The notes under the pieces were generated by a model. The model was not told the DNA's origin, ran no database searches, and saw only the letters and a list, made by a program, of their open reading frames with translations. Positions 1 through 33,725 of a stretch of 64,000 nucleotides of DNA are shown here, one piece after another. The position numbers and the translations under genes were made by a program. Source of the stretch: Candidatus Buchananbacteria bacterium (lineage in GTDB: Bacteria > Patescibacteriota > Patescibacteriia > Buchananbacterales > UBA6539); contig JBAYLH010000001.1 of the NCBI GenBank assembly GCA_041664165.1, positions 9,469 through 73,468 on the forward strand. The letters are read 5' to 3'. How positions within the stretch are numbered: position 1 is the stretch's first letter; every line of letters begins with the position of its first letter.

Positions 1-595
1 TTTCGCCTTTATCGCGATAAAAATTACCCAGTACTACCATTAATTCGCCGCTGGTAGGATTATTTTTTATGCCATCCAATAAAATCTCTTCCGCTTTTTT
101 ATCATCTTTTAAATAATAAAGGTAAAATTCGGCAAAACTTCGGTAAAATCTGAGATTTTTTTCTTCTCCCATTGAATTGGCAATCGCCGTTTGATAAGCC
201 GGTATGGCCTGGTTGTAATCTTTCAAAAAATTAGCGTACAAATCGGCTAAGTTGCCAAACGAAGTGCTGTTTTTTGGCTGCAGCTCACCGGCTTTGACCC
301 AAGCCAACTCCGCACCATCGTAATCACCGATATATTTTTTTATCATTCCCAAATTGAGCATGGCATAAAAATCATTGGGATCATTAGCCAAAGCTTCTTT
401 GGTTAAGTTAAAATCATTCAAATACTTATCTTTTTCTTCAGGCAATAAATCGTTTCGCATCACTTTAAAATTAAACAGCCCATTGTCGACAGCCGGCTGG
501 CTTTGGCCTTTTGGCCAAAAATAATAAGCCATCGCGCCGATAATTATAACTAAAATAATCACCCAAACAATTGATTTTACTTTTTTTGAATTCAT
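1..595 (-). CDS. TPR-repeat protein with N-terminal membrane anchor (partial; C-terminus lies beyond the window start)
   Basis: Minus-strand ATG at 595 gives MNSKKVKSIVWVIILVIIIGAMAYY, followed by repeated TPR-like helices (AYQTAIANSMGEEKNLRFYRSFAEFYLYY). Open to position 1. Confidence 0.5.
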   Translation of the reverse strand, partial: MNSKKVKSIVWVIILVIIIGAMAYYFWPKGQSQPAVDNGLFNFKVMRNDLLPEEKDKYLNDFNLTKEALANDPNDFYAMLNLGMIKKYIGDYDGAELAWVKAGELQPKNSTSFGNLADLYANFLKDYNQAIPAYQTAIANSMGEEKNLRFYRSFAEFYLYYLKDDKKAEEILLDGIKNNPTSGELMVVLGNFYRDKGE

Positions 596-600
596 AGATT

Positions 601-2310
601 TTAATTTAGAATTAATTTATAAATTTTAAAGGCTAATTGGTTATTTTTATTATTGACTGAATTCAAGCTGGCATTATTATTTTTGAATATGCTTTCCAAT
701 TTACTGGCGGCGGCTTGGTTAGCCGGCTCTAACCGGCCGGGATCAAAAACCAAATTATTGGCTCCCCTGATATAATAAAGATTTTTTACCCCGTAATTTT
801 TAAAAAATTCAAACCAGTTGGTATTAGGTATGGCTAAAGATAAATCGGCGGCCGAAACGAAATTAACGCCATAATAAACTGAAAACTGCCGAAAATACCA
901 AAGCGCGGAAAACCAATTCAGATTAGGGTCGTAGACAAAAAAATCTTTTCCCTGCAAATCCTTGGAAACATCAACTTTTAAGTCATCCAGACTGGCAATA
1001 GATTTGCGGCTTAAAGTATCCGGCTTGATAATTTTTCCCAAATAATCATTGAGCTGATTGAATCCCCCGTTTTCCCAGCGGCTGACCGAATAATATTTCC
1101 CGGCTTCGCCCAAGGGCTGGCTAAAAATATTGGTGTTTAGGCTGTAAAATATTTCAAAACCAAAAACGACGGCTAAAAACAAAAAATAAAATCCCTTTTT
1201 AAAAATTTCCAACGATCCGACCTGGTTGCCATTGATCAGCTCAAATGACTTGATCAATCCCAAGGCCAGAACTAAGGCGAAAAACGGATTAAGCAATGAA
1301 ACAAATCTGGCACTTGAGCCGATTAGGGAAAATTCGAGGCTGGCGAAAAGGATAACTAAGACTAAAAACAAATCCTTGGGTTCTTTATACCTGCTGACAA
1401 AATTAACCACCAAATAAAGAATCGAAGCAACAATTAAAATATAAATCGGCAAAGAATAATAACCGCTGAACTGCTGCCAAAAATCAAAAAATTGCTGCAA
1501 ATAATTGCCCGAACCGCCGCTCATGCCGGCCAGACCCGGCCAATCAGACATTTTCTGGCCAAGCAAAGTGGCAAACTGCAAATCAAAATGGCCGCGAGCC
1601 TGAAAAACTTTCAGGTTATAAAAAATTACCGGGGAAAAAATTAAAACCGCAATCGCAATGCTGGAGACAAAATATTTGCTGGCCAAAATTTTTCTTTGAG
1701 TCAAAAGCAGATAAAAAAATAGGACGGGAATCAGGAAAAAAACCGTGTACTTGGTTAATAAAGTCAGACCCAAAGAAATTCCGAACAAAATAAATTTTTT
1801 ATGGTCAACTAAACTGACAAAAAATAAATAGCCGGTCAATAAAATAAAAAATAAGGCAATCGGCTCCAAATAGCCGACCCGGCTGGCCCAGATATGATAG
1901 CTGAAAACGGTTAAAATCAAGCTGGAAATCCAGGCGACTTTTTGATTGTAAATTTGCCGCGCTAACAAATAAAGTAGGACAACCGAACCTAAACCGGCTA
2001 AAGCAAACGGCAATCGAGCCGTAAAAACCGATACCCCAAACAGGCTAAAAAATAAATGCTGGATAATAAAAACCAAAGGCGGCGCATCGTGAAAAGAAAG
2101 TTTTGACCACCAAGGAATCGTACCAAACCACTGAATCGGCGTTGTTTGCAGTTGCGAATCAGTATAATCCAAATAGCCGACCGCCCGAAAAGAATAAATG
2201 GCGTCATCATGCTGGATGTCGGCGCGGTTCAGGCCAAAAAATAACAGCCAAGCGGCCAAAACCACTATTGCCGGCAAAAAATATTTTGTTTTTTTAGTAA
2301 AAAAGCTCAT
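601..2310 (-). CDS. GT39-family (PMT/ArnT-like) integral membrane glycosyltransferase
   Basis: 569 aa with more than 10 predicted TM helices and a PMT_2/ArnT-like N-terminal loop architecture. Lies directly downstream of the giant Ser/Thr-rich secreted protein. Confidence 0.5.
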   Translation of the reverse strand: MSFFTKKTKYFLPAIVVLAAWLLFFGLNRADIQHDDAIYSFRAVGYLDYTDSQLQTTPIQWFGTIPWWSKLSFHDAPPLVFIIQHLFFSLFGVSVFTARLPFALAGLGSVVLLYLLARQIYNQKVAWISSLILTVFSYHIWASRVGYLEPIALFFILLTGYLFFVSLVDHKKFILFGISLGLTLLTKYTVFFLIPVLFFYLLLTQRKILASKYFVSSIAIAVLIFSPVIFYNLKVFQARGHFDLQFATLLGQKMSDWPGLAGMSGGSGNYLQQFFDFWQQFSGYYSLPIYILIVASILYLVVNFVSRYKEPKDLFLVLVILFASLEFSLIGSSARFVSLLNPFFALVLALGLIKSFELINGNQVGSLEIFKKGFYFLFLAVVFGFEIFYSLNTNIFSQPLGEAGKYYSVSRWENGGFNQLNDYLGKIIKPDTLSRKSIASLDDLKVDVSKDLQGKDFFVYDPNLNWFSALWYFRQFSVYYGVNFVSAADLSLAIPNTNWFEFFKNYGVKNLYYIRGANNLVFDPGRLEPANQAAASKLESIFKNNNASLNSVNNKNNQLAFKIYKLILN

Positions 2311-2425
2311 AGATTATTTATTTGAGCTAGTTTAATTTTAACAAAAAAAGTCATTTTTAGCAAGCGCTAAAAGTCCCCGCTTTTGGCAGGGACTTTTAGT
2401 TTTATGTGATCTTCAACTATTCCTA

Positions 2426-5400
2426 TTACTTACTGAAAGTAACCGCAGTTGAAGTAGCGTCAAGTTTGCTGGAAGCACCCTTGGCGACAACGTAGCCATT
2501 CATCCATTGTTCAGTACTGGAAGCAGTGGTGGATGAATTCTTTTGAACTGAGGTTCTCCAGTAATCCGTCCAGATAAAGCTGCTACCAAAGTAGTCAACC
2601 GCTAAACCGGTAAGCGCACTTTGATCAACCGTACCGCTGAATATGGTACCAATTGGAGCCGGATAAGCTGCAGGTAAGTTAGAATCACCTAATAACATGA
2701 TACTAACTGAACCACCGGTCGGATTTGAGGAAGCCGCACAGTTAACCGTGTTACAAACTAAATCACCTTTTAAGGTTAAGTAGTTTGAAGTTCCGGCGCC
2801 AATTTGTAAGGCTTGGAACTTGGTCGAATCGGTCGCACTGATGGCTGAACCATCGCTGGTCAAAGGAATGACAATGACTGAATCGCAGGTAGAACCGGCA
2901 TCGCAGGCAGCCGGAGCTGACCAGTCAACGCCGACATAGCTTAGCGAATCGTTTGTACCAAGCAAAGTGCCGTTTTGATCATACAATTTCCAGTTGGTGG
3001 TAGTAGCCGTACTGGTGGCGAAGGCAAAGGTAACTTGACCAATACCAATCGGGCCGGCCGAATCGGCACTGACTTTGAGCCGATATAATGGCGCGCCTGT
3101 TTGGTTAGTTAAGGTACCGCCCGCAACCTTGGAATTATCACCGCTGGTCGGCAATTCTTCGTTCGGGACAACGGTCGGAACGCTTCTGAATAAATACTGG
3201 TTCTTAGTAGTCGAACCGGTAATGGTAATAGAAGTAATCGTACCGCCTGATTGAGCGCCTTTGGCGGTAATATCACCAGCGGCGTTAATCTTTAATGACA
3301 AACCCTGGCCGGAAGCACCGCGTGAACCGATTTCGTAGTCGGAACCGGCGGTATCAACTTTAACCGTCAATAAGATACTGTTGTCTTTAGGAACAACAAT
3401 CGGACTGCCGGTAACGTCAATTAAGACGGTATCGCCAGTGCTGTCGGTTGAAGTTGGGGTTACTTCGGCTAGTTTGGTACTGCCGTTGTAAAGATAAACT
3501 TTGCTAACCTGGTCTAAACCACCGCTATTAAGGGCAGTTGAGGTCAGATAAAGTTTCTCAATTTTGACATCTTCATATTTAGCAAAAGCGCTGAATATGC
3601 CGAAAGTCAAACCGCTGGTGGAAGCCGGCATCAAACCTTCTTTAGGCGAAGTACTGTCTAAAGAAATGGTTAATTGACCGAGGTCAGTAAAGGTCATACC
3701 TTGACCATTACTCGGGCTGACAACAACAGTGGCTGTCAAATTGGTGGTACCACCTTTGGCCGTAACGTCTTCAGCACCGGTAATGGAAGCCATACCGACT
3801 TGCATTGTGCCGTTAGTCGCTGCGGTACTGATATCGCCTTTAACCGTTAAAGTCTTGCTTGTACCTTTGGTAATAACTAAAGGTGTTGAAAGCATCCAGG
3901 TAGCGGTGGCTTCATCATTATCAGTTGTTTTAGCCGCGGTATCGGAATCTGGATCATTGGTGGTAGCTAATTCAGTCGCACCGTCAAATAAACTCCAGTT
4001 AGATACTTCGGCCGGGTTGCAAGTGCTGTCGCAAGTAACCGCAGCCATGACTTTGGTAACTTTAACGTCTTCACCGCTGCCTTCCGCGCCCAAGATTAAA
4101 TTGGCGAAGGTAACAGCTTTAGAGCCGGCAACAATACTTTGGGCAATTGGTGAAGGTGAAGTTGAAAGCGACAATTGAGCTGATTTTATCGTCATGGTCG
4201 CTGAGCTCTGGGAACTGGCCGGGGTTGGAGTAACAGCTAAACCAGTGGTTGAGCCTTTGGCGGTTAAACCATTAGGGGTAATGCTGGCGACAATGGTGTC
4301 ATCAGCTTCCCAATCAGCGCTTAAGTCACCTTTAATGGTGTAGTAGTGCAAACCAACTGGAACCGTGATGGTGTCAGTTGAGGTTACACCGACAATATAG
4401 GTTCTGGTTGAATAACCAGCGCTATAAACAGTGTCATCAGGACCGGCAACAATACTGCCGTTTTCATCATAAACCGCAATATTGGTTAAGTCAGCTTCGG
4501 TAACGTTACCGACAGTACTGGCCGAAGAGGTAGTAATGGTAAAGACAATCGGCAATGAGGTGATTTCAGTTTCTTCACCCTTGGCCTCAAATTCGAATTT
4601 ACCTAAAACTGCCTGGTCTGAATCAGTCGCAACATTAGCGGCTGATAAAGTGGCCGGGCCGATTCTCAATGAACCGCGGTCAACGCTAGTAACCGGAGCG
4701 GTCCAGAATGGTTCGGCGTCGGCAGTGGCACCGTTGCCACCATCGGCGAGTTTAACGGCATAGCCATAAAGTTGGCCCATGCTGACGATATCGGATTCAT
4801 CGTTGACATCAAAGCGGATAGTTCTGGCTGAACCGCTGACAATGTCCAGTCTTAAATCAAACTGAACGGTTTTGCCTTTGGCAACCAAAATTGGGCTGGC
4901 GGATAAGTCAAAAGTGACCATCCCGCCGGTTACGGCCGCTACGGTGGCGACTTTGGCGTCATCAACTAATAAGCTTAAGTTGGCAACGTCGGCATCAGAA
5001 GCGGTTCCGCCTTGTTTAAAGCTAATTTGGCTAACTTTAAAGTCTTCAACGGAACTGGCAACTAATTTAAAGCCGGAAACGATGTAATTTGTCGTACCAA
5101 TCTTTTGCGTACTGGCCGACGGGTTGTTAGCGCCATCCGATAAGCTCAAAGCGCCAATCGTGATGGTACCATTGATATTTTGGTAATTACCGACAATCGG
5201 CAAAGTGCCAACAATGGCGGCAGTACCAACCAAGGTAACGGCTGATAAATTCAATGATGGAATTTCACCGGCGTAGGAAGCAGTGGCTCCCATGTTACCA
5301 GCTAAGTAAATTGACTTAGTGGTACCGGCGGCAACCGTGATGTTTTGGTTAAACACCGCTTGGTGTGACGAATTCAAGGTTTTGGTGTTGCCGATTCTGA

Positions 5401-6196
5401 CACCAGTCGCGGCATCAATTAAAGCGATGCTGCTGAATGGCGAATCGGAAGCAACCGTTCCACCTCGGGTAACTGTCAATGAATCAATTACGATATCACC
5501 GTCAGCTGAGGCGGTTAAGTTTACTTTGGTGAATTTGTTGTTAATTGAATTACCAACAACAATACCACTGGCTGGAGTATCTGAGGCTAAAGCCACAGTT
5601 AAACTAGTACCAGTAGCAACCGGACCACCAGTCAAATTCTTATCGTCATTGATTGTGGCGGCTTCGCTGGTTTCAGTGGCTTTGTTGTAGTCACTGGCAA
5701 CAGTGATGTCAGCGCCGACTTTGTAGTTAACAAAGAAAGCATCTGAGACATCTTCAACGGATGTTCTAGCCCAGTTGACACCATAGAGGGCTTCAGCTAT
5801 TGCAGCTGTGGTAACCCATCTTAAGGTACCGTTAGCGGAAACAGCGTAAACTTTTGGATCGGTTGTAATTTTGACTAATTTAACACCCGGTCGGTAGGTA
5901 ACATTACCACCAATGGCATAAGAACTCATCTCGGTTAAAGAAACAATCTTCACGCCGGAAAAGTCTGAGTACCAAGTCATATAAGTTTTCTCATTTGGGA
6001 AAACATATCTTTTGGCATCAGCACCAAGGTAATAAACAGCTTTACATGGGTCATTGACGCCGGCTCCAGCAGCACACTGAAGCTTAATCAAATCACCAGA
6101 AGTAGCTGCACCTACGGCCAACGGCATTGAAAACAAGCCAACTGACCAAACGATTGTCGTTATGGCAATTGTGTAGGTTAATAATTTCTTAATCAT
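2426..6196 (-). CDS. Giant (about 1,256 aa) secreted Thr/Ser/Ala/Gly/Val-rich surface protein (adhesin or S-layer-like) with repeated Ig-like beta-rich segments
   Basis: Track ORF 2426..6226. The internal ATG at 6196 (MIKKLLTYTIAITTIVWSVGLFSMPLAVGAA) gives a canonical signal peptide and has an upstream GGAAA ribosome-binding site. Composition is low-complexity and Cys-poor. Confidence 0.6.
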   Translation of the reverse strand: MIKKLLTYTIAITTIVWSVGLFSMPLAVGAATSGDLIKLQCAAGAGVNDPCKAVYYLGADAKRYVFPNEKTYMTWYSDFSGVKIVSLTEMSSYAIGGNVTYRPGVKLVKITTDPKVYAVSANGTLRWVTTAAIAEALYGVNWARTSVEDVSDAFFVNYKVGADITVASDYNKATETSEAATINDDKNLTGGPVATGTSLTVALASDTPASGIVVGNSINNKFTKVNLTASADGDIVIDSLTVTRGGTVASDSPFSSIALIDAATGVRIGNTKTLNSSHQAVFNQNITVAAGTTKSIYLAGNMGATASYAGEIPSLNLSAVTLVGTAAIVGTLPIVGNYQNINGTITIGALSLSDGANNPSASTQKIGTTNYIVSGFKLVASSVEDFKVSQISFKQGGTASDADVANLSLLVDDAKVATVAAVTGGMVTFDLSASPILVAKGKTVQFDLRLDIVSGSARTIRFDVNDESDIVSMGQLYGYAVKLADGGNGATADAEPFWTAPVTSVDRGSLRIGPATLSAANVATDSDQAVLGKFEFEAKGEETEITSLPIVFTITTSSASTVGNVTEADLTNIAVYDENGSIVAGPDDTVYSAGYSTRTYIVGVTSTDTITVPVGLHYYTIKGDLSADWEADDTIVASITPNGLTAKGSTTGLAVTPTPASSQSSATMTIKSAQLSLSTSPSPIAQSIVAGSKAVTFANLILGAEGSGEDVKVTKVMAAVTCDSTCNPAEVSNWSLFDGATELATTNDPDSDTAAKTTDNDEATATWMLSTPLVITKGTSKTLTVKGDISTAATNGTMQVGMASITGAEDVTAKGGTTNLTATVVVSPSNGQGMTFTDLGQLTISLDSTSPKEGLMPASTSGLTFGIFSAFAKYEDVKIEKLYLTSTALNSGGLDQVSKVYLYNGSTKLAEVTPTSTDSTGDTVLIDVTGSPIVVPKDNSILLTVKVDTAGSDYEIGSRGASGQGLSLKINAAGDITAKGAQSGGTITSITITGSTTKNQYLFRSVPTVVPNEELPTSGDNSKVAGGTLTNQTGAPLYRLKVSADSAGPIGIGQVTFAFATSTATTTNWKLYDQNGTLLGTNDSLSYVGVDWSAPAACDAGSTCDSVIVIPLTSDGSAISATDSTKFQALQIGAGTSNYLTLKGDLVCNTVNCAASSNPTGGSVSIMLLGDSNLPAAYPAPIGTIFSGTVDQSALTGLAVDYFGSSFIWTDYWRTSVQKNSSTTASSTEQWMNGYVVAKGASSKLDATSTAVTFSK

Positions 6197-6382
6197 TTTT
6201 AATTTTTCCTTTCTTAAACTCATCAAACTTTTTAGTTAGGCTTTCTGATCTTGTTACGCCTAGGCGAACCTAACAACATCTTCGGAGCCGCTTTTAAACG
6301 GCCGACTAAACCCTTGCAGCCTTATTTGCTTAAAATTCCTGATTAGCCAGGACCGACCTTTATTTTGAGCAACTAAGGGGGT

Positions 6383-6408
6383 TTAGACCCTAATTCCTCT
6401 AAAAAGTT
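6383..6408 (-). promoter_or_regulatory. Candidate ECF-sigma-type promoter (AACTT-N16-TCTAA) in the leader of the giant surface protein gene
   Basis: Minus strand reads ttAACTTtttagaggaattagggTCTAAac, about 190 nt upstream of the 6196 start and just downstream of the anti-sigma stop. It resembles the GGAACTT-N16-TCTRA class. Confidence 0.25.
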
Positions 6409-6476
6409 AACAAGTTTTAATACCCAACTGATTTATATCTAAACTGGTTGGGGGCAAAAAAACTTAATTAATTAAT

Positions 6477-7361
6477 CTATTTATTAATATCGCTAGTTGA
6501 TTCTGATTGATCAGCCGGTAAGCCAGCGCCATCTTGAGCCTGATCGGCTGGCGGCAAACTGGCGTCCGAATCGTTAGTTACTCCTTTAACCGTACCTTCG
6601 TCGGCCTTGTCCGCTTCTTCATTCACGGTTTGAGCCAGCTGCTGAGCGGAAAGACTGGTGTCTTGAACGCTTTGAACCGCCTGGCTGACGATATCTTTAA
6701 CCTCGACATTATCGGCCGCGGAAATCTTTTCCACTTTGGTATCTAATGATTTAACTAACTCCTGGGCTTTTGAACTTAGAGTCAGCGCCATTTTAACTGT
6801 CCGTTCTTTGTCTTCCATATTAACATTGCTGTCTGACTGCTTCATTGATTGATTCATTTTGCTGATATGATTATTAACATCGGTAACATTATTTTTAAGT
6901 TCAGCGACTAAAGTTTCAATCTGCCTTTTCTTTTCTTGAGGATTAACACCGGGCTCGTCAATTATCTTGTCCAATTCTGCCACCCGTTTTTGGGCAAATT
7001 CAATTTTTAATTCCGCCCGCTGGTTGGCATCGGTAACTAAAGCGGCATGGGTATTTTCCAAGGCAATTTTAACCGGATAAAGCGAACTGCCGGGCAGACT
7101 GTAAAAAGCCGCATTGATCGTCAAGCTGCTGCCCAAAAAAACCACCATCATCAAAATCATCACCACCACCGGCTCGACTAAATTCTGGCGAAAAATCTGG
7201 GCGACTAAATTAAAGTAATCGCCGATTCCCAGTTTCACTCTTTCCGGCTGGCTGGCAGAAATTTCTTTTAACAAAACATCCCTCGTCAGAGCTTTCCACT
7301 CCGGACGGGGGCAAATTTCTTTTCTTAAATTTTTGATTTCTTTAATTAAACTGTTTTCCAT
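6477..7361 (-). CDS. Putative single-pass membrane anti-sigma factor
   Basis: 294 aa with a cytoplasmic N-terminus, one TM (VVVMILMMVVFLGSSLTI) and a coiled-coil, acidic extracytoplasmic domain. It overlaps the ECF sigma gene stop by 20 nt. Confidence 0.4.
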   Translation of the reverse strand: MENSLIKEIKNLRKEICPRPEWKALTRDVLLKEISASQPERVKLGIGDYFNLVAQIFRQNLVEPVVVMILMMVVFLGSSLTINAAFYSLPGSSLYPVKIALENTHAALVTDANQRAELKIEFAQKRVAELDKIIDEPGVNPQEKKRQIETLVAELKNNVTDVNNHISKMNQSMKQSDSNVNMEDKERTVKMALTLSSKAQELVKSLDTKVEKISAADNVEVKDIVSQAVQSVQDTSLSAQQLAQTVNEEADKADEGTVKGVTNDSDASLPPADQAQDGAGLPADQSESTSDINK

Positions 7362-7914
7362 TTTTGCTTAATAATTCTCGGGTAACTTTTAAAGCGCGAT
7401 GCAAAATGACGCGAACGGAACCTTTTGATTTATCCAGCACGCCGGCGATTTCGGTAATCGACAAGTCTTCGACAAAGCGGAGAATAATCACTTCCCGATA
7501 TTCATCTTTAAGCTGGCGTAAAATTCCTTCGATGCTTTTAATTTCAAAGTGGCTGTCAATTTTGTTTAATAAGCTCTGCTGCCTTTCGTCTTTGACTGCC
7601 TCCAATACTTCTTGGTCTTGGACAAATTCTCTCTTGGCTTTTTGGCGGTAAGAATCAATCACTAAATTTCTGGCCGTTCGATACAGCAAAGCGCGGAGAT
7701 TACCGATCTCATCTTCAGTCTCCTTAATATATTGCCAAATTTTTAAAAAGGCTTCGGAAGTTAAGTCTTCCGCATCCTGACGGCTCGCCACCTTAAAATA
7801 AATAAATCTGTAGATAGGAGTTACGTACAGATCATAAATTTGGGCGAAAGCTTCAGGATCCTTGTTTTTCAATCTCAATAATAGCAGCTTTTCTGAAATT
7901 TTTGAAGGTTTCAT
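7342..7914 (-). CDS. ECF (sigma-70 family group 4) RNA polymerase sigma factor
   Basis: 190 aa with region 2 (AEDLTSEAFLKIWQ) and a region 4 helix-turn-helix (SITEIAGVLDKSKGSVRVILHRALKVTRELL). Confidence 0.75.
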   Translation of the reverse strand: MKPSKISEKLLLLRLKNKDPEAFAQIYDLYVTPIYRFIYFKVASRQDAEDLTSEAFLKIWQYIKETEDEIGNLRALLYRTARNLVIDSYRQKAKREFVQDQEVLEAVKDERQQSLLNKIDSHFEIKSIEGILRQLKDEYREVIILRFVEDLSITEIAGVLDKSKGSVRVILHRALKVTRELLSKNGKQFN

Positions 7915-8244
7915 TATATATGACGTGAAAGCTTAATAAATGTTACAGTCGTAGCATTTACTATAACTAATTAACTAAAATAAGTCAAACGCTAAAATTG
8001 GCTAATTTACTCATTAATCGCTCAATTATGTTGCTTATTTAATTTTTCTATATTATACTAAATATCGTGATTTGTCCAGGCTAATCTAGACAAATAACCA
8101 TACTTAAACCTGTTTATAACTTAAAACCTAATATTTCAATCAAATTAATTATTTTTCAAAAAATTTCGCCAATATTTCCTTTAACCTAACAAATACAAGT
8201 TAATCAAATACTGCCAAAACTAATCAAAATTAAACCATTCCAAT

Positions 8245-8520
8245 ATGCCAAATGTCATTCGATTATCAGTGTCTGAAGCTTCCCGAATTTTCGGGGTTGA
8301 CCAAAAAACTATCAGACGGGCAATCAAGGCCGACGAGTTGCGCTATATCGTTGTTTGCGGCCGCTATAAAATTAATTTTAGCAGTATTTTGGAATGGTCT
8401 CAAGGCAGGACTACCACCAAAAATAAGCTGGCAGCTAAAGGCATCGGCCAATATGTAGACAAATGGAAAATCAAAAATAAACTCTACTCCCCCAACCCGG
8501 CTTTAGCAGATAAAAAATAA
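8245..8520 (+). CDS. Small helix-turn-helix DNA-binding protein (excisionase/MerR-like HTH_17)
   Basis: 91 aa. SVSEASRIFGVDQKTIRRAIKADEL is a typical HTH. It is the only plus-strand gene in a minus-strand block, followed by GC hairpins and a terminator. Confidence 0.5.
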   Translation: MPNVIRLSVSEASRIFGVDQKTIRRAIKADELRYIVVCGRYKINFSSILEWSQGRTTTKNKLAAKGIGQYVDKWKIKNKLYSPNPALADKK

Positions 8521-8600
8521 GAGATCCCGCCTCCGCCAACCTGCGGCAGGGGCTTCGGCGGGCAGGCAGAAATCAGAGATCAGAAATTAGAAGCGGAAAA
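8521..8600. repeat. GC-rich hairpin segment plus CAGA-rich repeat (solo copy of the family that flanks the 4HB gene at 33.3 kb)
   Basis: Contains cccgcctccgccaacctgcggcaggggcttcggcgggcagg, then cagaaatcagagatcagaaattagaag. Confidence 0.4.
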
Positions 8601-8607
8601 GCCAAAA

Positions 8608-8640
8608 CGCAGAAGCTTATGCTCCTGCGTCTTTTTTTAT
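8608..8640 (+). terminator. Rho-independent terminator
   Basis: acgcag-aagcttatgctc-ctgcgt, then T7. Confidence 0.5.
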
Positions 8641-8653
8641 ATGAGAAAAATTT

Positions 8654-9814
8654 TTACGGCAAATTGCCCAAGGTAACAGTTTTAGTCAAGACTTTACCAG
8701 CTCGCAAAATTTCCAATTCCGTTTGTTCTCCCGGCCGATACTGCATAATCAAATCAGTTAAGCTGCTGGCTTTATCCAGTTGCTGACCATCAACGCTGGT
8801 GATAATATCGTTAGCTAAAATTCCCGCCATCGCTGCCGGACTGCCGGCTTTAGGATTTTGGTAAACTAGCGCTCCCTGATTTAGATTTTGCGTTACCGCC
8901 GGGTCTAAACCAAAAGTCCAAGCTAAGTCCAGATAATTAATCCCTAAAAACGGCCGCTTGATCGGATTATTCTTTAAAACATCCAAAACAATTGACCGAA
9001 ATTGATTTATCGGAATCGCCGCGGTAATTCCTTTTTCGGAGTCCACTTCTTTTACGACTCCAATGACTTCCCCGCCGAGATTTAAAACCGGACTGCCCAA
9101 ATAGCCATTGCCGAAATCACCGCTAAGCGAAATCAACTTTTGGTATTGCTCCGAAGAAATCAAAAAGTTATTTGCCGCCGCCAGCAAGCGATAATTATTA
9201 TTTTTAACATTGCCCACCGTTGCTTCAGTCGAATTATTAACCGCTAAAACCAGCTGGCCTAAAACCAACTCATCGGAATCACCCAAGGTAGCCACCGGCA
9301 GATTAGTCGCGGCAATTTTAATGAAAGAAACGCCGGTTGTCGCATCGCTGACTATTTTTTCGGCCGCAAATGTCTTGGCATTATAAACAACCGCCAATTG
9401 CTGGGGTTTTAGCCCGGCAAGATTTTTGGCATAGCTGACTAGCCAGCCGTCGCTGGTTAAAATAAAGCCATTAGCCTGAAGTTCTTTGACCAGATAAATT
9501 TGACTGAGCTGATTAGTCGAACCCGGCTTTTTCAGGTAGATGCCAACCAATGCCGAGGAAATTTTTTCTATTGTTTTGTTAACCTCAAAATCCTGCTGGA
9601 TGCCTAAAAATTTTTTCACCCGCTGAAGCTCCGGTACGACCGCGGCGGCGTCTTGATTAATATTAACGCTGCCGGCCGAATAGTCTTGCTGCCAAGGATT
9701 GATATAAACGTCCGAAAAAATCTGGCCGACCACCCCGGCGGCAAAACCAAAAATCATTGATAAAACGACAACCTGGGAAATAAACTGATTTTTTTGCTTT
9801 TTAAATAAATTCAT
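8654..9814 (-). CDS. HtrA/DegP-like trypsin-fold serine protease with C-terminal PDZ domain, membrane-anchored
   Basis: 386 aa with an N-terminal TM, a trypsin-like core and a C-terminal PDZ (GALVYQNPKAGSPAAMAGILANDIITSVDGQQL). The catalytic motif region is divergent. Confidence 0.55.
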   Translation of the reverse strand: MNLFKKQKNQFISQVVVLSMIFGFAAGVVGQIFSDVYINPWQQDYSAGSVNINQDAAAVVPELQRVKKFLGIQQDFEVNKTIEKISSALVGIYLKKPGSTNQLSQIYLVKELQANGFILTSDGWLVSYAKNLAGLKPQQLAVVYNAKTFAAEKIVSDATTGVSFIKIAATNLPVATLGDSDELVLGQLVLAVNNSTEATVGNVKNNNYRLLAAANNFLISSEQYQKLISLSGDFGNGYLGSPVLNLGGEVIGVVKEVDSEKGITAAIPINQFRSIVLDVLKNNPIKRPFLGINYLDLAWTFGLDPAVTQNLNQGALVYQNPKAGSPAAMAGILANDIITSVDGQQLDKASSLTDLIMQYRPGEQTELEILRAGKVLTKTVTLGNLP

Positions 9815-9823
9815 AAATTTAAA

Positions 9824-10588
9824 TTAAAACCATTTAGCCGTAGCTAAAATTATAATTAAAGAAACGACGCCGATCGCCAAATAACGAATCACCACTTTTT
9901 TTTCCTTAATACCCAAAAGCCAGTTGCGGGACAAACCGGTGATTAAATAATAACTAATCGTAACAACCAGACCGCTGACATAGACACTGACCGGCAAAAA
10001 ACTGACCACCCAAAAAACTTCCGTTGCCAATAAGGCGGTAATGACAATGTGGCGCCAGCCGGTTTTTATCGTATGGTCGCTGGCCCAAACGATTTGATGG
10101 GTCAAAAAAAGACTGATTAAAGCAAAGGCGGCCAAAAACGGCCATAGCGAAAGGCCAAGAAAAATAATCAGGCTGAAAAAACCAGAAGTCATCAGAAAAA
10201 CCGTCAGCAGATTAATGTTAACTGAGATATTTTCCAGGGAGTGAACCTGGTATTTCGGCCGGAAATGGTACTGAACAAAAATCGTTTCCAAAAATACCCA
10301 GATTAAAGCCACAAAACACCCCAAAAAAATGTGCTTTAAAAAATTGCCCTCGGCAAAAATTAAAAAAATAAAACAGCTGCTTAAAAATAATACCGGGGTT
10401 AAAACATTGCGCCAGAACTTTCCGCTTTTAAAATTATAATCCATTAGCTGATAAATACCCAAAAAAACAATCACCAAACATAGAATAATCGCCCAATAAA
10501 ATTGTTTGGGTAAAGCGAAAACTATTTCAATCAGAAAAAAGATTAGGAAAGAAGAAAGAATTGGAATAAAACGATTGATAATTTTCAT
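9824..10588 (-). CDS. Polytopic membrane protein, function unknown
   Basis: 254 aa with about 8 predicted TM helices. It overlaps its neighbours by 4 bp, which fits an operon. Confidence 0.4.
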   Translation of the reverse strand: MKIINRFIPILSSFLIFFLIEIVFALPKQFYWAIILCLVIVFLGIYQLMDYNFKSGKFWRNVLTPVLFLSSCFIFLIFAEGNFLKHIFLGCFVALIWVFLETIFVQYHFRPKYQVHSLENISVNINLLTVFLMTSGFFSLIIFLGLSLWPFLAAFALISLFLTHQIVWASDHTIKTGWRHIVITALLATEVFWVVSFLPVSVYVSGLVVTISYYLITGLSRNWLLGIKEKKVVIRYLAIGVVSLIIILATAKWF

Positions 10589-11392: not shown

Positions 11393-11866
11393 TTAGCGGA
11401 TAATAATTAGATAATCGGCTTTGTCGGCATTGCCTTCGTTAGAACCGTCTCCGCAAGAATTATTATGAAATTCCGCCTTGGCTGTCTCCATATTTTCTAC
11501 GGAAACCGTCGGAAAAGTCAAGCCATTGCAAAGATTGTCTTTGACGTAATAGTAATAATAATCATTGGCTCCGGTTCCGCCTTTGTCCAGAGGGTCTTTC
11601 GGCAAGGCCGGAAAATATTTTTTAAGCTGGCTATCGACAGCTTCGCCGCGACCCAAATAGCCGCTGTCTGGCGGATAATTACCGTCATTTTCCTGAGCAT
11701 ACATCAACAAAGCCTTAACGTACTGGGAAGCGTCATAAGCCCGTTTAGCATCGTGGCTTTTAGCCTGAGCGCTTCTAAAGGCAACCAAGCCAATCGTCGC
11801 GATTAAAGCGATAATTAAAACCGCAACCATCAATTCAATTAAAGTTATGCCTTGATTTTTTCTCAT
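11393..11866 (-). CDS. Type IV pilin / pseudopilin with class III prepilin signal
   Basis: MRKNQG|ITLIELMVAVLIIALIATIGL is the prepilin peptidase motif (G-1, E+5). Confidence 0.7.
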   Translation of the reverse strand: MRKNQGITLIELMVAVLIIALIATIGLVAFRSAQAKSHDAKRAYDASQYVKALLMYAQENDGNYPPDSGYLGRGEAVDSQLKKYFPALPKDPLDKGGTGANDYYYYYVKDNLCNGLTFPTVSVENMETAKAEFHNNSCGDGSNEGNADKADYLIIIR

Positions 11867-13039: not shown

Positions 13040-14083
13040 TTAATAATAAGTATTTAAGGTATCAGCGTTGCCGATCCGGTTCAAATAAGACTGCCGATCA
13101 ATTAAGCCTTCCTCATAAAGCCGCTTTAAGGATGAATGCATGGTAATCATGCCTTCGCTGCGCCCGGTTTGCATCGCTGAAGTGATGTGAGCGATTTTAT
13201 CTTCCCGGATTAAATTCGCAATGGCCGGCGTGTTAATCATAATTTCTCTAGAAACAATGATCCCGCCGCCTTTTTTGGGCAGCATCTGCTGGCAAATTAC
13301 CGCCCGCAAAACCGAGGCTAATTGCATTAGAATCTGCTGCTGCCGGTGAGACGGAAACATATCGACAATTCTTTCAATGGTTTCCGCCGCCGTATTGGTG
13401 TGCAAAGTCGATAAAACCAAGTGGCCGGTTTCCGCCGCCGTCAAAGTCGCCGAAATTGTTTCCAAGTCTCTCATTTCGCCGACCATAATCACGTTTGGAT
13501 CCTGGCGCAAGGCCCGCTTCAGCGCTTCCGAAAAAGAATGGGTATCGCGACCCAACTCCCGCTGTTCGATAATACTTTGATCTTCTTGAAAAATAAATTC
13601 AACCGGATCTTCAATTGTAATAATATGCGCTCTTCTCTCGGTATTGATTAGATTGATTAAAACCGCCAAAGTCGTTGATTTACCGGAGCCGGAAGGACCG
13701 GTAACTAAAATTAATCCCTGGTTTAAATGGCTCAATTTATAAATCGTCTCATCGAAATAAATTTGTTTGGGAGTAGGAATAGATCCCGGAATAACCCTGG
13801 CGGCTAAACCCAGCTGGCCTTCCTGCTGGTGCAAATTAACCCGGAAATGACCCCCGGCAATATCTAAAGCGAAGTCAAGCTCTTTTTCTTTTTTAAAAAC
13901 ATTAACTTCACTTTCTTTCATTAAAGAAAAAATTGCCACCTCTAACTCATTATTGACAATGGCTTCTTCGGAAACAACTTCCAAATTGCCTAAAATTCTG
14001 AGAGTTGGTTTATTGCCCGCGACCAGATGAAGGTCGGAGGCTTTGCTCTTTAAAGCTAATTCAAAATATTTTTTTATATCCAT
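13040..14083 (-). CDS. pilT: Type IV pilus retraction ATPase PilT
   Basis: 347 aa with Walker A LVTGPSGSGKSTTLA and PilT-type Asp/His boxes. Confidence 0.85.
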   Translation of the reverse strand: MDIKKYFELALKSKASDLHLVAGNKPTLRILGNLEVVSEEAIVNNELEVAIFSLMKESEVNVFKKEKELDFALDIAGGHFRVNLHQQEGQLGLAARVIPGSIPTPKQIYFDETIYKLSHLNQGLILVTGPSGSGKSTTLAVLINLINTERRAHIITIEDPVEFIFQEDQSIIEQRELGRDTHSFSEALKRALRQDPNVIMVGEMRDLETISATLTAAETGHLVLSTLHTNTAAETIERIVDMFPSHRQQQILMQLASVLRAVICQQMLPKKGGGIIVSREIMINTPAIANLIREDKIAHITSAMQTGRSEGMITMHSSLKRLYEEGLIDRQSYLNRIGNADTLNTYY

Positions 14084-33353: not shown

Positions 33354-33725
33354 TTATTTTAATTTTTGTTTATTGCTATTAATCCAGCCATAAAGTATTT
33401 TACTAGTCTCTTCTGTTTCTTGAGCTATTTGGTTATATTCTTTTTGATCTAATAATTTTAGGTCAAAACTTAGCATCAATTGATATTTTAATTCTTCAAG
33501 TGAACCCTGGGCAATATTATAAAAATTAAGACTATCTTTTACTGTTTTTCTACGGAATCCTTCAACAATATTACAGGCTAATGATACAACCGCCCGTCTC
33601 ATCTGAGAAACTAGACCGAATTTTTCTTCAGCCGGAAAAAATTTAGTAATCTCATAAACATGCAAAGCAAGATTATGAGACTTCTGCCAAACAATTAAAT
33701 CTTTAAACGTTCTAATTTGCGCCAT
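33354..33725 (-). CDS. Four-helix-bundle protein (23S rRNA intervening-sequence protein / DGR Avd-like family)
   Basis: IVWQKSHNLALHVYEITKFFPAEEKFGLVSQMRRAVVSLACNIVEGF is the TIGR02436-like signature. Confidence 0.7.
   Translation of the reverse strand: MAQIRTFKDLIVWQKSHNLALHVYEITKFFPAEEKFGLVSQMRRAVVSLACNIVEGFRRKTVKDSLNFYNIAQGSLEELKYQLMLSFDLKLLDQKEYNQIAQETEETSKILYGWINSNKQKLK

Follow-up and report, generated by a model that had tools for sequence, protein, structure and literature searches.

What does a locus make in which an ECF sigma factor gene lies beside the gene of a giant secreted protein, and how is its output controlled? We addressed this question in a 64,000-nucleotide stretch of Candidatus Buchananbacteria DNA (the window), using computation to identify its genes, compare gene order, map promoters and terminators across loci, examine the RNA for covariation and resolve domain layout. 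A first-pass annotation had described four co-directional genes, for an ECF sigma factor, an anti-sigma factor, a surface protein and a glycosyltransferase, in what it took to be a CPR genome. All four minus-strand open reading frames were confirmed, at 7342-7914, 6477-7361, 2426-6196 and 601-2310, and two public contigs, whose genes were called independently, give the same products of 190, 294, 1,256 and 569 aa. The gene identities hold, and the closest homologues come from Ca. Buchananbacteria, bearing out the CPR origin. A fifth co-directional gene in the group (<1-595) encodes a TPR protein with a membrane anchor; its full length is 227 aa, and it runs off the window start. Unless stated otherwise, all features below lie on the minus strand.

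Conserved gene order in Patescibacteria

Among related loci from Patescibacteria, the sigma gene and its partner, which carries a DUF5667 domain, lie directly 5' of the giant gene in 59 of 70 cases. This order spans Buchanan-, Uhr-, Falkow- and Portnoybacteria as well as other lineages, and is retained down to ~29% protein identity. Of the four-gene synteny first proposed, this three-gene core stood and the glycosyltransferase did not: PMT_2 adjacency (within 5 kb) was limited to 13/63 loci, all in a Buchananbacteria-like clade. Judged from these sequence comparisons, the locus is a widely conserved module of ultra-small CPR/Patescibacteria.

A giant secreted protein with tandem Ig-like domains

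The giant gene (2426-6196), whose start agrees with both the homologue alignment and the independent gene calls, encodes a secreted surface protein of 1,256 aa. After a signal peptide (residues 1-30) come an alpha/beta N-terminal domain (~33-165), a linker and a tandem row of six beta-sandwich (Ig-like) domains; a Trp-rich motif at the C-terminus is conserved. The mature protein (125.5 kDa, pI 4.5) has four close Cys pairs and, in keeping with the Thr/Ser/Gly/Ala-rich secreted product first described, is composed largely of T (13%), A (11%), S (11%), G (9%) and V (9%). T plus S make up 24%, versus 10.6% in the other window proteins. Amino-acid composition accounts for the higher GC of the gene, whose GC3 (0.436) is ordinary. 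We found no sequence match in Pfam (N-terminal domain included), NCBIfam or PDB. AF2 returned confident models (pLDDT 90.7 and 89.5) in which the annotated repeat modules are Ig-like domains, and a pTM of 0.82 for the C-terminal half suggests rigid domain packing. Foldseek matches were Ig-like arrays, including the adhesins/pilins PrgB, AgI/II, BcpA and Cna.

More than 1,000 full-length homologues measure 1,190-1,290 aa. In a sister subfamily, a coiled coil plus PG_binding_1 replaces the N-terminal domain. Because the N-terminal domain of the window's protein has no detectable relative, a role as wall anchor is suggested by the domain swap only. The giant protein is likely an S-layer building block, which would presumably assemble into a lattice.

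An apparent S-layer has been seen on Parcubacteria cells by cryo-EM (10.1101/2022.04.20.488981). The supplement to the SymProFold lattice-prediction preprint lists Patescibacteria S-layer candidates of 1,131-1,274 aa (10.1101/2024.05.28.596244). Compared by description rather than by sequence, these share with the giant protein their Patescibacteria origin, size class, signal peptide and multiple Ig-like domains; Doudnabacteria contribute A0A1F5NKF4 (1,272 aa) as a homologue here and A0A1F5NRV7 (1,264 aa) as an entry there. The giant-protein family is thus probably already among the predicted S-layer proteins of that 2024 preprint. In three Paceibacteria, secreted proteins with a PGBD rank within the top five signal-peptide genes by expression (PMC10936435), a description that the PG_binding_1 subfamily fits. 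The searched parts of these two sources are silent on an ECF sigma/DUF5667 linkage, on the leader RNA and on GT-C/Wzy_C-TPR neighbours.

ECF sigma factor and transcription of the giant gene

As annotated, the 190-aa product of 7342-7914 is an ECF (group IV) sigma factor: it combines Sigma70_r2 and r4_2 (Sigma70_ECF) and passes the ECF superfamily cut-off (TIGR02937; 86.7 bits, cut-off 42.9). Its best NCBIfam subfamily is the BldN type (TIGR02952), where its 123 bits fall below the family cut-off of 206; it is therefore not a BldN-family member. The gene of the 294-aa DUF5667 protein (6477-7361; PF18915, E 2e-10) overlaps the sigma gene by 20 nt. In the family alignment of this protein, the ~35 cytoplasmic residues at the N-terminus are conserved; a single TM span (the only hydrophobic one, ~residues 63-87) leads to the helical DUF5667 domain, which is extracytoplasmic, and the tail is acidic and of low complexity. 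The overlap and single span agree with the single-pass anti-sigma factor first described. Its function is presumed from position, overlap and topology: Pfam and NCBIfam searches revealed no recognisable anti-sigma domain (zf-HC2, RskA or similar), and its database name is only 'DUF5667 domain-containing'. We surmise that it binds the sigma factor.

Two promoters precede the sigma gene. A sigma-70-type site, TTGACT-17-TATAGT (7960-7988; 10/12 consensus match), has both hexamers invariant across 7 aligned relatives. The other, an ECF-type promoter, TGTAAC-N16-CGTC (7922-7947), starts at -33 of the sigma ATG and ends 7 nt before it, implying a leaderless or near-leaderless autoregulated transcript. 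This motif, which resembles B. subtilis sigmaX/W/M promoters, is the sole intergenic exact match within 64 kb, and the 20.9-kb source locus holds no further copies. It sits at exactly -33 in ~30 loci. Sense-strand copies lie 5' of the giant gene in 50 of 78 loci, versus one antisense; the pattern used did not find the motif in 28. Its place varies across lineages: in 33 loci it precedes sigma, in 12 it falls within sigma linker codons, in 3 it separates sigma from anti-sigma, and in 2 it stands ~280 nt directly before the giant gene. The 12 motifs internal to the sigma coding region are conserved at the nucleotide rather than the amino-acid level.

Downstream, an intrinsic terminator (2367-2399; stem GUCCCUGC/GCGGGGAC, then UUUU) follows the giant gene. 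Of 75 loci, 69 have a terminator-like site after the giant gene; after the anti-sigma gene the count is 10/62, compared with 8/60 control windows. Because terminators are rare after the anti-sigma gene and common after the giant gene, the ECF control proposed at the outset is well supported, by way of co-transcription, by this comparative promoter and terminator evidence. A sigma-70-like promoter, TTGCTA-17-TAAAAT with upstream TG (2335-2363; identified by consensus match only), would serve the glycosyltransferase unit. Lying between the giant and PMT genes, this promoter and the terminator rule out one four-gene operon, and by these sequence signals the PMT gene is transcribed apart from the giant gene.

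A small HTH_17 (MerR/excisionase-type) DNA-binding protein of 91 aa, encoded divergently on the plus strand (8245-8520; PF12728, E 7e-9), is a candidate regulator of the sigma operon, with divergently oriented homologues in 40 of the 63 loci that have enough upstream sequence. The intergenic region between HTH_17 and sigma contains a perfect inverted repeat, TTGTCCAG-N6-CTAGACAA (8072-8093), a candidate operator that is unique in the window (0 expected by chance) and overlaps a promoter-like site at 8078-8050. Exact copies occupy the equivalent place in 12 loci, and alignment A5 shows a conserved block there. Also encoded near the locus is a membrane-anchored protease of the trypsin-plus-PDZ type.

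A structured RNA in the leader

The leader between the anti-sigma and giant genes (6197-6476) had been described as 250 bp, GC-richer and structured. Only the last holds: it measures 280 nt, its GC of 36% is below the window mean of 42.8% (44% in the structured core), and it folds with z = -3.9 versus shuffles. Sequence scans detected no recognisable sigma-70 promoter, ECF promoter or terminator within it. The conserved core (~100 nt, 6297-6396) forms nested helices round the unpaired AAAGGUCGG, then a terminal hairpin. Across relatives, 27 of 31 pairs show compensatory change, and 79% of cells are paired, versus 66% in shuffles (0/500 reach the observed value) and at most 55% when slid. A covariance model (R1) matched at the leader position only, with 25 matches in 1.52 Mb and 85.7 bits in the window; no Rfam family matched. 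The RNA carries an invariant AAAGGTCGG motif (6353-6361; single copy in the window); the invariant, single-stranded AAAGGUCG stands immediately 5' of the hairpin, and AAGGTCG is present in 48 of 61 leaders versus ~1 expected by chance. Other conserved elements are a second hairpin, GATGTTGTTAGGTTCGCCTAGGCGTAACAAGATC (6247-6280), which forms a block in alignment A2 and appears in the MFE fold; the Shine-Dalgarno AAAGGA of the giant gene (6207-6212); and the block TTTTTRGAGNAATTAGG (~6397-6425), which could be an unrecognised promoter. We take the leader RNA to be a processing or stabilising element.

Glycosyltransferases downstream of the giant gene

The 569-aa enzyme (601-2310) is a polytopic GT-C glycosyltransferase of the PMT_2/ArnT-like superfamily, with D31 and D35 invariant in the first loop. 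Its Pfam matches to both PMT_2 (PF13231, 80.8 bits) and PMT (PF02366, 46.4 bits) support a GT-C fold and the PMT-like part of its 'GT39/PMT-like' label. The GT39 part did not survive: the family profile matches only ArnT among solved structures (5EZM, E 5e-6), no NCBIfam equivalog passes its cut-off, and because ArnT, the nearest solved relative, belongs to GT83, GT39 membership is not established. The window's 64 kb contain no other PMT_2 gene.

A small TPR gene lies 3' of the giant gene in 44 of 63 loci, and in other lineages a Wzy_C-TPR fusion protein takes the PMT position (31/63). Wzy_C is the fold of the protein O-oligosaccharyltransferases PglL and WsaB. Over equal DNA lengths, we counted 23 PMT_2, 39 Wzy_C and 66 TPR matches downstream, versus 0, 7 and 0 upstream. 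In the full source locus the downstream order is PMT-TPR-PMT-GT4-epimerase, and GT4, UDP-glucose dehydrogenase and epimerase genes lie alongside. O-glycosylation of the giant protein, as putative acceptor, is plausible; the enzymes could act on a wall polymer instead.

Alternative readings of the locus

The giant gene might be transcribed mainly from its own constitutive promoter, unrecognised in the leader, with the sigma/anti-sigma genes adjacent because DUF5667 monitors the surface layer or wall and the ECF regulon lying elsewhere. The leader lacks the ECF motif in 64 of 65 loci, several loci have a variable hairpin after the anti-sigma stop codon, and the TTTTTRGAGNAATTAGG block lies immediately 5' of the RNA core, so a transcript could have its 5' end where the structured RNA begins. 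We nevertheless regard this as improbable: the scan that finds canonical sigma-70 promoters before the sigma and PMT genes finds none in the leader, terminator-like sites after the anti-sigma gene are at background, no second intergenic ECF motif occurs in 64 kb, and the ECF promoter shifts between lineages with the giant gene always downstream, in L031 and L032 directly so. The leader RNA, for its part, could be a ligand- or protein-responsive (riboswitch-like) regulator of translation or transcription, in line with a multi-helix build and an invariant unpaired 8-9-nt sequence kept across very distant lineages. No expression platform is evident, as we saw neither a terminator/anti-terminator alternative nor Shine-Dalgarno pairing. 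We think such a regulator unlikely, although the evidence does not firmly discriminate it from a processing or stabilising element.

Similar weighing applies to the protein products. Were the giant protein a host-attachment adhesin of an episymbiont rather than a lattice-forming S-layer protein, its Foldseek kinship with adhesins and pilins and the type IV pilus genes nearby would be in place, and Kuroda et al. (PMC10936435) assign a part in host attachment to related PGBD proteins that are highly expressed. This is rather doubtful given a near-constant full length over >1,000 sequences, with no repeat-number variation and no variable tip domain, and a giant gene that is single-copy in the window. 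Composition and pI are also typical of S-layer proteins, the C-terminal half is modelled as rigidly packed, and same-sized Patescibacteria proteins are S-layer candidates in the lattice-prediction preprint. There is a somewhat better, still minority, chance that the products of the PMT_2, Wzy_C and TPR genes make or decorate a glycopolymer of the cell wall (either teichoic-acid-like or a secondary wall polymer) instead of modifying the giant protein, and that this polymer may be the receptor of the N-terminal domain. PMT_2 and Wzy_C enzymes commonly act on lipids and polysaccharides, and ArnT is itself a lipid-modifying GT-C; the glycosyltransferase unit appears separately transcribed, and its GT4, UDP-glucose dehydrogenase and epimerase neighbours resemble polysaccharide loci. 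Yet two unrelated membrane glycosyltransferase types share the place beside the same protein, each with a TPR module, separate or fused, and that protein is markedly rich in Ser and Thr.

Discussion

With E. coli sigmaE-RseA-DegS and B. subtilis sigmaW-RsiW, sigmaX and sigmaM, the locus shares a two-domain sigma factor whose gene overlaps that of a single-pass membrane partner, an autoregulatory promoter with AAC at -35 and CGT at -10, and a trypsin-plus-PDZ protease encoded nearby. Unlike in these ECF envelope modules, the partner is a DUF5667 protein that lacks any known anti-sigma domain, a single very large structural gene on the same transcript is the only target in evidence, and one clade has its promoter within the sigma coding sequence. 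Streptomyces sigmaBldN-RsbN (chaplin/rodlin), whose subfamily is the best NCBIfam match of the window's sigma, likewise pairs an ECF sigma with a membrane anti-sigma to govern cell-coat proteins, but the targets are unrelated, and those of Streptomyces are dispersed rather than co-transcribed. The leader has analogies in the 5'-UTR stabilisers of S-layer mRNAs and in the cggR-gapA transcript of B. subtilis, which is processed by RNase Y: it is long and structured, stands ahead of a gene for an abundant structural product, and has a conserved single-stranded site adjoining a hairpin. As in cggR-gapA, regulator genes lie upstream and the abundant product downstream on a single transcript; unlike there, processing is a proposal, and AAAGGUCG is no described RNase site.

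Like the Geobacillus/Paenibacillus (WsaB, Wzy_C family) and Tannerella slg loci, 31/63 related loci set an S-layer-type gene beside sugar-nucleotide enzymes, GT2/GT4 and a polytopic Wzy_C-type transferase. In contrast to slg loci, the polytopic enzyme in the window's clade is PMT_2 (GT-C), a TPR partner is always present, and neither SLH nor any other known S-layer anchoring domain is present. A GT-C enzyme whose first extracytoplasmic loop bears acidic residues is a feature shared with actinobacterial Pmt, eukaryotic PMT (GT39) and TMTC1-4. A Ser/Thr-rich secreted protein is a plausible acceptor, as for Pmt/PMT; GT-C and extracytoplasmic TPR occur together, as in TMTC (GT-C fused to TPR); and two PMT_2 paralogues stand side by side in the source locus, like Pmt1-Pmt2. 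The window's enzyme differs in that its profile reaches only ArnT among solved structures and in that it has no MIR domain.

In the mechanism that we favour, the ECF sigma would transcribe from its own TGTAAC-N16-CGTC promoter. The transcript would cross the sigma gene, then the gene of the membrane-spanning DUF5667 protein that overlaps it, and, meeting no terminator, pass the 280-nt leader into the gene of the secreted 125-kDa protein, with its putative N-terminal anchoring domain and six Ig-like domains, to end at the strong terminator directly 3'. With a single ECF-driven transcript running through the giant gene, release of sigma from its presumed anti-sigma by an inducing signal would raise surface-protein output. 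Through the leader RNA, a surface-protein mRNA that is long-lived and highly translated would be uncoupled from a low-level regulator mRNA. As a counterpoint, an S-layer gene would be expected to have a strong promoter of its own. The separate downstream unit (PMT_2 GT-C, membrane-anchored TPR protein, second PMT_2, GT4 and sugar epimerase) most likely either serves extracytoplasmic glycosylation of the surface protein or makes a wall glycan bound by it. With a regulatory circuit and leader RNA that appear undescribed, the locus as a whole is, with moderate confidence, a conserved Patescibacteria module that would make and control the main wall-anchored (S-layer-type) surface protein.

A conserved regulatory core precedes the giant surface protein gene

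The first-pass annotation described four minus-strand open reading frames, and all four lie where it placed them, with minor corrections only, to the leader and to GC content. Independent gene calls on two public contigs gave products matching those of the window. To place these genes in a comparative frame, the open reading frames of 80-odd related Patescibacteria loci were classed by iterated HMM searches, and neighbours were counted over 70 loci with at least 2.5 kb of upstream sequence and 63 loci with at least 5 kb downstream. An ECF sigma gene lies upstream of the giant gene (window 2426-6196, minus strand) in 63/70 loci; in 59/70, sigma and DUF5667 genes sit directly upstream on the same strand, down to about 29% giant-protein identity. 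The seven loci without an ECF sigma are exactly those of a PG_binding_1 subfamily. Downstream, we found a small TPR gene in 44/63 loci, a PMT_2 gene within 5 kb in 13/63 and a Wzy_C protein within 5 kb, usually fused to TPR, in 31/63. Altogether the downstream DNA held 23 PMT_2, 39 Wzy_C and 66 TPR matches, compared with 0, 7 and 0 in a control of equal upstream length. These counts show that the core of sigma, anti-sigma and giant genes is conserved across the family. The GT-C neighbour is particular to the clade of the window; elsewhere another polytopic transferase, Wzy_C, occupies its position.

The sigma factor (7342-7914, minus strand; 190 aa) comprises Sigma70_r2 at residues 27-94 and r4_2 at residues 127-176 by Pfam, and reaches 86.7 bits against NCBIfam TIGR02937 (cut-off 42.9). 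Sigma2 and sigma4 domains alone, within a length of about 170-220 aa, define a group IV ECF factor. No NCBIfam equivalog passes and no named ECF subgroup could be assigned, the best being BldN-type TIGR02952 (123 bits, cut-off 206). ECF factors are also recognized by a co-transcribed cognate anti-sigma gene; here the DUF5667 gene lies downstream with a 20-nt overlap, and the pairing is kept in 59 of the 70 loci. The DUF5667 protein (6477-7361, minus strand) has a single hydrophobic span at about residues 63-87 followed by DUF5667 at residues 89-184, which, as read off the sequence, would give a single-pass protein with an extracytoplasmic sensor domain. Pfam and NCBIfam revealed no recognisable cytoplasmic anti-sigma domain (zf-HC2, RskA, RsgI_N or similar), and alignment shows that the N-terminus consists of a conserved, family-specific stretch of 35 aa. 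None of the DUF5667 homologues retrieved was fused to an anti-sigma domain of known type, their names were uninformative and based on the domain only, and we found no mention of DUF5667 in the literature searched.

A divergent HTH_17 gene (8245-8520, plus strand in the window) is present in 40 of the 63 loci with sufficient upstream sequence, and the interval separating it from the sigma gene contains a perfect palindrome (8072-8093). Directly upstream of the HTH_17 gene is a membrane-anchored Trypsin_2-PDZ protease resembling HtrA/DegS (8654-9814, minus strand), which about 24 related loci also carry there. This protease could be the site-1 protease of the presumed DUF5667 anti-sigma, and the conserved C-terminus of the giant protein (...TSTAVTFSK) might be readable by a PDZ domain.

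Type IV pilus genes adjoin the surface-protein module, among them a pilin-like gene with an N_methyl motif (11393-11866, minus strand) and a T2SSE ATPase (13040-14083, minus strand), in the same order as in the loci L001, L003 and L086. A polytopic DUF5656 membrane protein (9824-10588, minus strand) between the pilin-region genes and the PDZ protease keeps its position in the same three loci. Further afield, two genes are compositional outliers among those of the window: 26861-28699 (minus strand; GC 54%, GC3 66%) and 33354-33725 (minus strand; GC 30%, GC3 21%). One relative (L004/L005) carries a reverse-transcriptase (RVT_1) gene a few kb upstream of the module (3851-4882, minus strand). Many module-bearing MAG records (L012, L014, L017, L021 and others) have 'uncultured Gammaproteobacteria', 'Candidatus Saccharibacteria' or 'archaeon' in their titles, probably through mislabelled taxonomy in public databases; the module is clearly that of Patescibacteria.

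Promoters and terminators point to one partly ECF-driven unit

Alignment of the region upstream of the sigma gene identified three blocks common to seven relatives: the palindrome, a sigma-70 promoter and an ECF motif. The sigma-70 promoter is canonical (TTGACT-17-TATAGT, 7988-7960). The ECF promoter is typical of its class (TGTAAC-N16-CGTC, 7947-7922) and ends 7 nt before the sigma ATG, implying a leaderless, autoregulated transcript. As expected of an autoregulatory ECF promoter, it has an AAC-type -35 and a CGT-type -10 element; the motif begins at position -33 relative to the ATG, both here and in about 30 related loci. The motif has one intergenic exact match in the window and, likewise, one in the 20.9-kb source locus. 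In the 3.5 kb preceding the giant gene, the sense strand bears the motif in 50/78 loci, compared with a single antisense match.

The position of the motif varies among lineages. It precedes the sigma gene in 33 loci, falls between sigma and anti-sigma in 3 and, in two loci of another subfamily, precedes the giant gene by about 280 nt. In 12 Uhrbacteria-type loci (L057, L064-L067, L069, L073, L075, L076, L078, L081 and L082) it is inside the sigma gene, within the codons of the sigma2-sigma4 linker, about 250-290 nt before the sigma stop. Across these 12 loci the residue before Ser is Thr, Ala or Pro while the nucleotides CGTC are kept, and Val is always encoded by GTA. Retention of nucleotides (V=GTA, xCG-TCx) where the amino acid varies argues for constraint at the DNA level. 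A transcript from this internal motif would carry the anti-sigma and giant genes without the full sigma gene.

The motif is absent from the giant-gene leader in 64/65 loci, and we rejected an ECF promoter belonging to the giant gene itself in favour of co-transcription. A conserved leader block at about 6397-6425, when read as either a sigma-70 or an ECF promoter, gave no consistent -35/-10 spacing. In 69/75 loci, the giant gene is succeeded by a hairpin and T-tract resembling a terminator; after the anti-sigma gene, the frequency of such sites is at background (10/62, compared with 8/60 control windows). In the window, the terminator after the giant gene (2367-2399) is followed by a sigma-70-like promoter for the PMT gene. 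The simplest reading of these sequence features is a single sigma-antisigma-leader-giant unit, partly ECF-driven, together with a separate glycosyltransferase unit. ECF control of the surface protein, as originally predicted, is therefore well grounded by promoter positions and terminators compared across relatives.

A further exact ECF-type motif was seen in one relative, L001 (16852-16876, plus strand), about 286 nt upstream of a sugar operon encoding an epimerase, UDP-glucose dehydrogenase and GT4; the window's own contig lacks this extra motif.

The giant-gene mRNA carries a conserved leader RNA

The leader between the DUF5667 and giant genes (6197-6476, minus strand) had been described as a structured, GC-richer element of 250 bp. 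It is in fact 280 nt long and AT-rich overall, with a GC content of 36% compared with 42.8% for the window. Its structure is borne out: the leader folds better than shuffled sequences (z = -3.9) and aligns with its relatives in conserved blocks. An AAGGTCG heptamer, found in 48/61 leaders, is followed by hairpins of differing sequence and is itself enclosed between complementary flanks. A broad MAFFT alignment of the AAGGTCG region misaligned the 3' strands, so covariation testing was kept to 16 Buchananbacteria-type leaders, each of which, folded independently, adopts the same nested architecture. In this alignment, compensatory changes occur at 27/31 pairs. Pairing is possible in 79% of cells, compared with 66% after shuffling (0/500 shuffles reach the observed value) and no more than 55% with the partners slid. 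Since a single member supplied the structure, the slid control has a built-in advantage for the observed pairing, an effect that touches the pair-type counts less. In the wider leader set, a crude hairpin count gave 60%, compared with 30% in controls. A covariance model of the structured core (6297-6396) produced 25 matches in 1.52 Mb, all at the leader position and three of them strong ones outside the seed. Rfam returned no match at E values up to 1 for window positions 1-9000, and no gathering-score match in six related loci. The leader RNA is one new component of the system, a new conserved RNA element specific to the giant-gene mRNA.

Long 5' UTRs are a feature of S-layer mRNAs, and the cggR-gapA transcript is processed by RNase Y. 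By analogy with these processing or stabilizing elements, we favour a role for the leader in processing or 5' stabilization, cleavage here being a proposal; we prefer this reading in view of co-transcription with low-abundance regulators. A riboswitch-like function seems somewhat less likely. A 15-codon leader-peptide reading frame in the second hairpin was considered and rejected, being interrupted in L003.

The giant protein resembles an S-layer protein in composition

The giant gene starts at the ATG at 6196, which is preceded by AAAGGA and fits the homologue alignment. Neither Pfam, NCBIfam nor the sequences in the PDB yielded a match to its product. Ca. Buchananbacteria and other Parcubacteria/Patescibacteria contribute more than 1,000 homologues, nearly all 1,190-1,290 aa long, alignable over their full length and all annotated as hypothetical; a scan with one genome per species placed relatives in 324 genomes. 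The mature protein (125.5 kDa, pI 4.48) contains 24% Ser+Thr, little Arg, His or Met, and four closely spaced Cys pairs. It accordingly fits the general profile of S-layer proteins, that of a large, acidic secreted protein with much Thr/Ser/Ala/Gly/Val and little Cys/His/Met. Pfam and NCBIfam found no known S-layer domain (SLH, CWB2 or similar). The higher GC of the gene arises from amino-acid composition and not from codon choice, since its GC3 is ordinary; codon bias is therefore uninformative about how strongly the gene is expressed.

AlphaFold models of the two halves (pLDDT 90.7 and 89.5; pTM 0.82 for the C-terminal half) predict a signal-peptide helix, then an alpha/beta N-terminal domain (about residues 33-165) that a short linker joins to six all-beta domains. 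The Foldseek matches, with TM scores up to 0.28, were all to generic arrays of Ig-like domains in tandem (integrin alpha legs, PrgB, pilins and, lower in the list, the Haloferax S-layer protein); for these predicted models, the result bears on fold and not on function. The N-terminal domain had no relatives in Pfam, and its profile gave only chance-level matches in the PDB. In a sister subfamily, similarity to the giant protein begins at about residue 196, preceded by a coiled coil and PG_binding_1. The presence of PG_binding_1 at the equivalent position suggests an exchangeable wall-anchoring slot, and from this domain swap we infer that the N-terminal domain is a wall anchor, with the Ig-like array probably displayed at the cell surface. 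An S-layer role for the giant protein is plausible; a two-dimensional lattice and very high abundance, which such a role would entail, have only indirect support, from published work (PMC10936435 and 10.1101/2024.05.28.596244).

Downstream of the giant gene, several lineages also encode shorter paralogues (about 400-950 aa) with the same Ig-like domains (L025, L027, L029, L033-L035, L041, L043, L049, L054, L058, L061, L062, L078 and L084). They may be extra surface-layer components.

Alternating glycosyltransferases lie downstream

The window contains one PMT_2 gene in its 64 kb (601-2310, minus strand). Its product passes both PMT models (PF02366, 46.4 bits, cut-off 22.7; PF13231, 80.8 bits, cut-off 26.1). 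D31 and D35, in the first extracytoplasmic loop, where GT39 enzymes carry an acidic catalytic motif, are invariant across 20 homologues; the sequence reads HDD rather than DE, and ArnT-like enzymes have the motif too. As a single sequence the protein has no match in the PDB; a profile of the 20 homologues reaches only ArnT (5EZM, GT83; E 5e-6), and Pmt1/Pmt2 were not found in that profile search. NCBIfam gave Agl23, ArnT and a mannosyltransferase, all far below cut-offs. The protein can safely be called a GT-C enzyme of the PMT_2/ArnT-like superfamily. The first-pass annotation had called it GT39/PMT-like; the GT-C assignment stands, and a place in GT39 and mannose specificity are unproven.

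A fifth gene, encoding a membrane-anchored TPR protein, belongs to the group; it extends from 595 and runs off the window. The source contig (257 kb) continues beyond it with a second PMT_2, then a GT4 and a sugar epimerase. In L086 (15052-19133) the TPR gene sits between two PMT_2 paralogues, the second copy falling just outside the window; L001, L003 and L007-L009 have the same layout. This gene arrangement recalls the eukaryotic heterodimeric Pmt1-Pmt2.

O-glycosylation of the giant protein, predicted at the outset for a 'GT39' enzyme, is a proposal drawn from gene neighbourhood. A serious alternative is that the neighbouring transferases act on a wall glycopolymer instead. The protein O-oligosaccharyltransferases PglL and WsaB belong to the Wzy_C family. 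Two unrelated transferases, PMT_2 and Wzy_C, alternate at one position, and each comes with an extracytoplasmic TPR module; both facts favour action on the giant protein over the glycopolymer.

Discussion

The system is a variation on two familiar themes, envelope genes under ECF control and S-layer loci accompanied by genes for glycosylation. An apparent S-layer has been seen by cryo-EM in Parcubacteria (10.1101/2022.04.20.488981), and a 2017 genome paper called the composition, biogenesis and formation of the CPR envelope unclear (PMC5220378). Kuroda et al. found that secreted proteins with peptidoglycan-binding domains are among the five most expressed signal-peptide genes of three Paceibacteria (PMC10936435). 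Among the proteins that the SymProFold preprint puts forward as Patescibacteria S-layer candidates (1,131-1,274 aa, with hexagonal lattices predicted) is the Doudnabacteria entry A0A1F5NRV7 of 1,264 aa (10.1101/2024.05.28.596244). The giant-protein family has a Doudnabacteria member of similar size (A0A1F5NKF4, 1,272 aa). Because of these same-sized candidates, the family is probably already among the published S-layer proposals, the match being one of size and lineage. Nowhere in the searched passages of these papers did we find the linkage of ECF sigma with DUF5667, the shifting ECF promoter, the leader RNA or the alternation of PMT_2 with Wzy_C-TPR.

All parts can be joined in one tentative reading, which we regard as rather improbable as a whole: the principal S-layer protein of much of Patescibacteria, with a dedicated homeostatic circuit, RNA and glycosylation. 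Here, the DUF5667 anti-sigma would monitor the surface layer, possibly by way of the DegS-like PDZ protease, which would read the giant C-terminus. The released ECF sigma would drive transcription of regulators and S-layer gene together, and a new class of cis-acting RNA (AAAGGUCG motif) would turn this single transcript into a stable, highly translated S-layer mRNA. Outside the membrane, a GT-C/TPR complex, functionally akin to eukaryotic PMT/TMTC, would O-glycosylate the giant protein, a Wzy_C-TPR enzyme doing so in other lineages.

CPR/Patescibacteria account for a large part of the diversity of bacteria, and their envelope is poorly understood. The module supplies a concrete, phylum-wide candidate for their surface-layer protein and a first evidence-based circuit for it, consisting of an ECF sigma, its DUF5667 partner and a candidate HTH_17 operator. 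It gives DUF5667 a functional context as a presumed anti-sigma sensor domain, and the alternation of PMT_2 with Wzy_C-TPR offers a case in which non-orthologous replacement among enzymes of surface glycosylation can be tested. The module also offers targets for labelling, for interpretation of cryo-ET and for studies of host contact.
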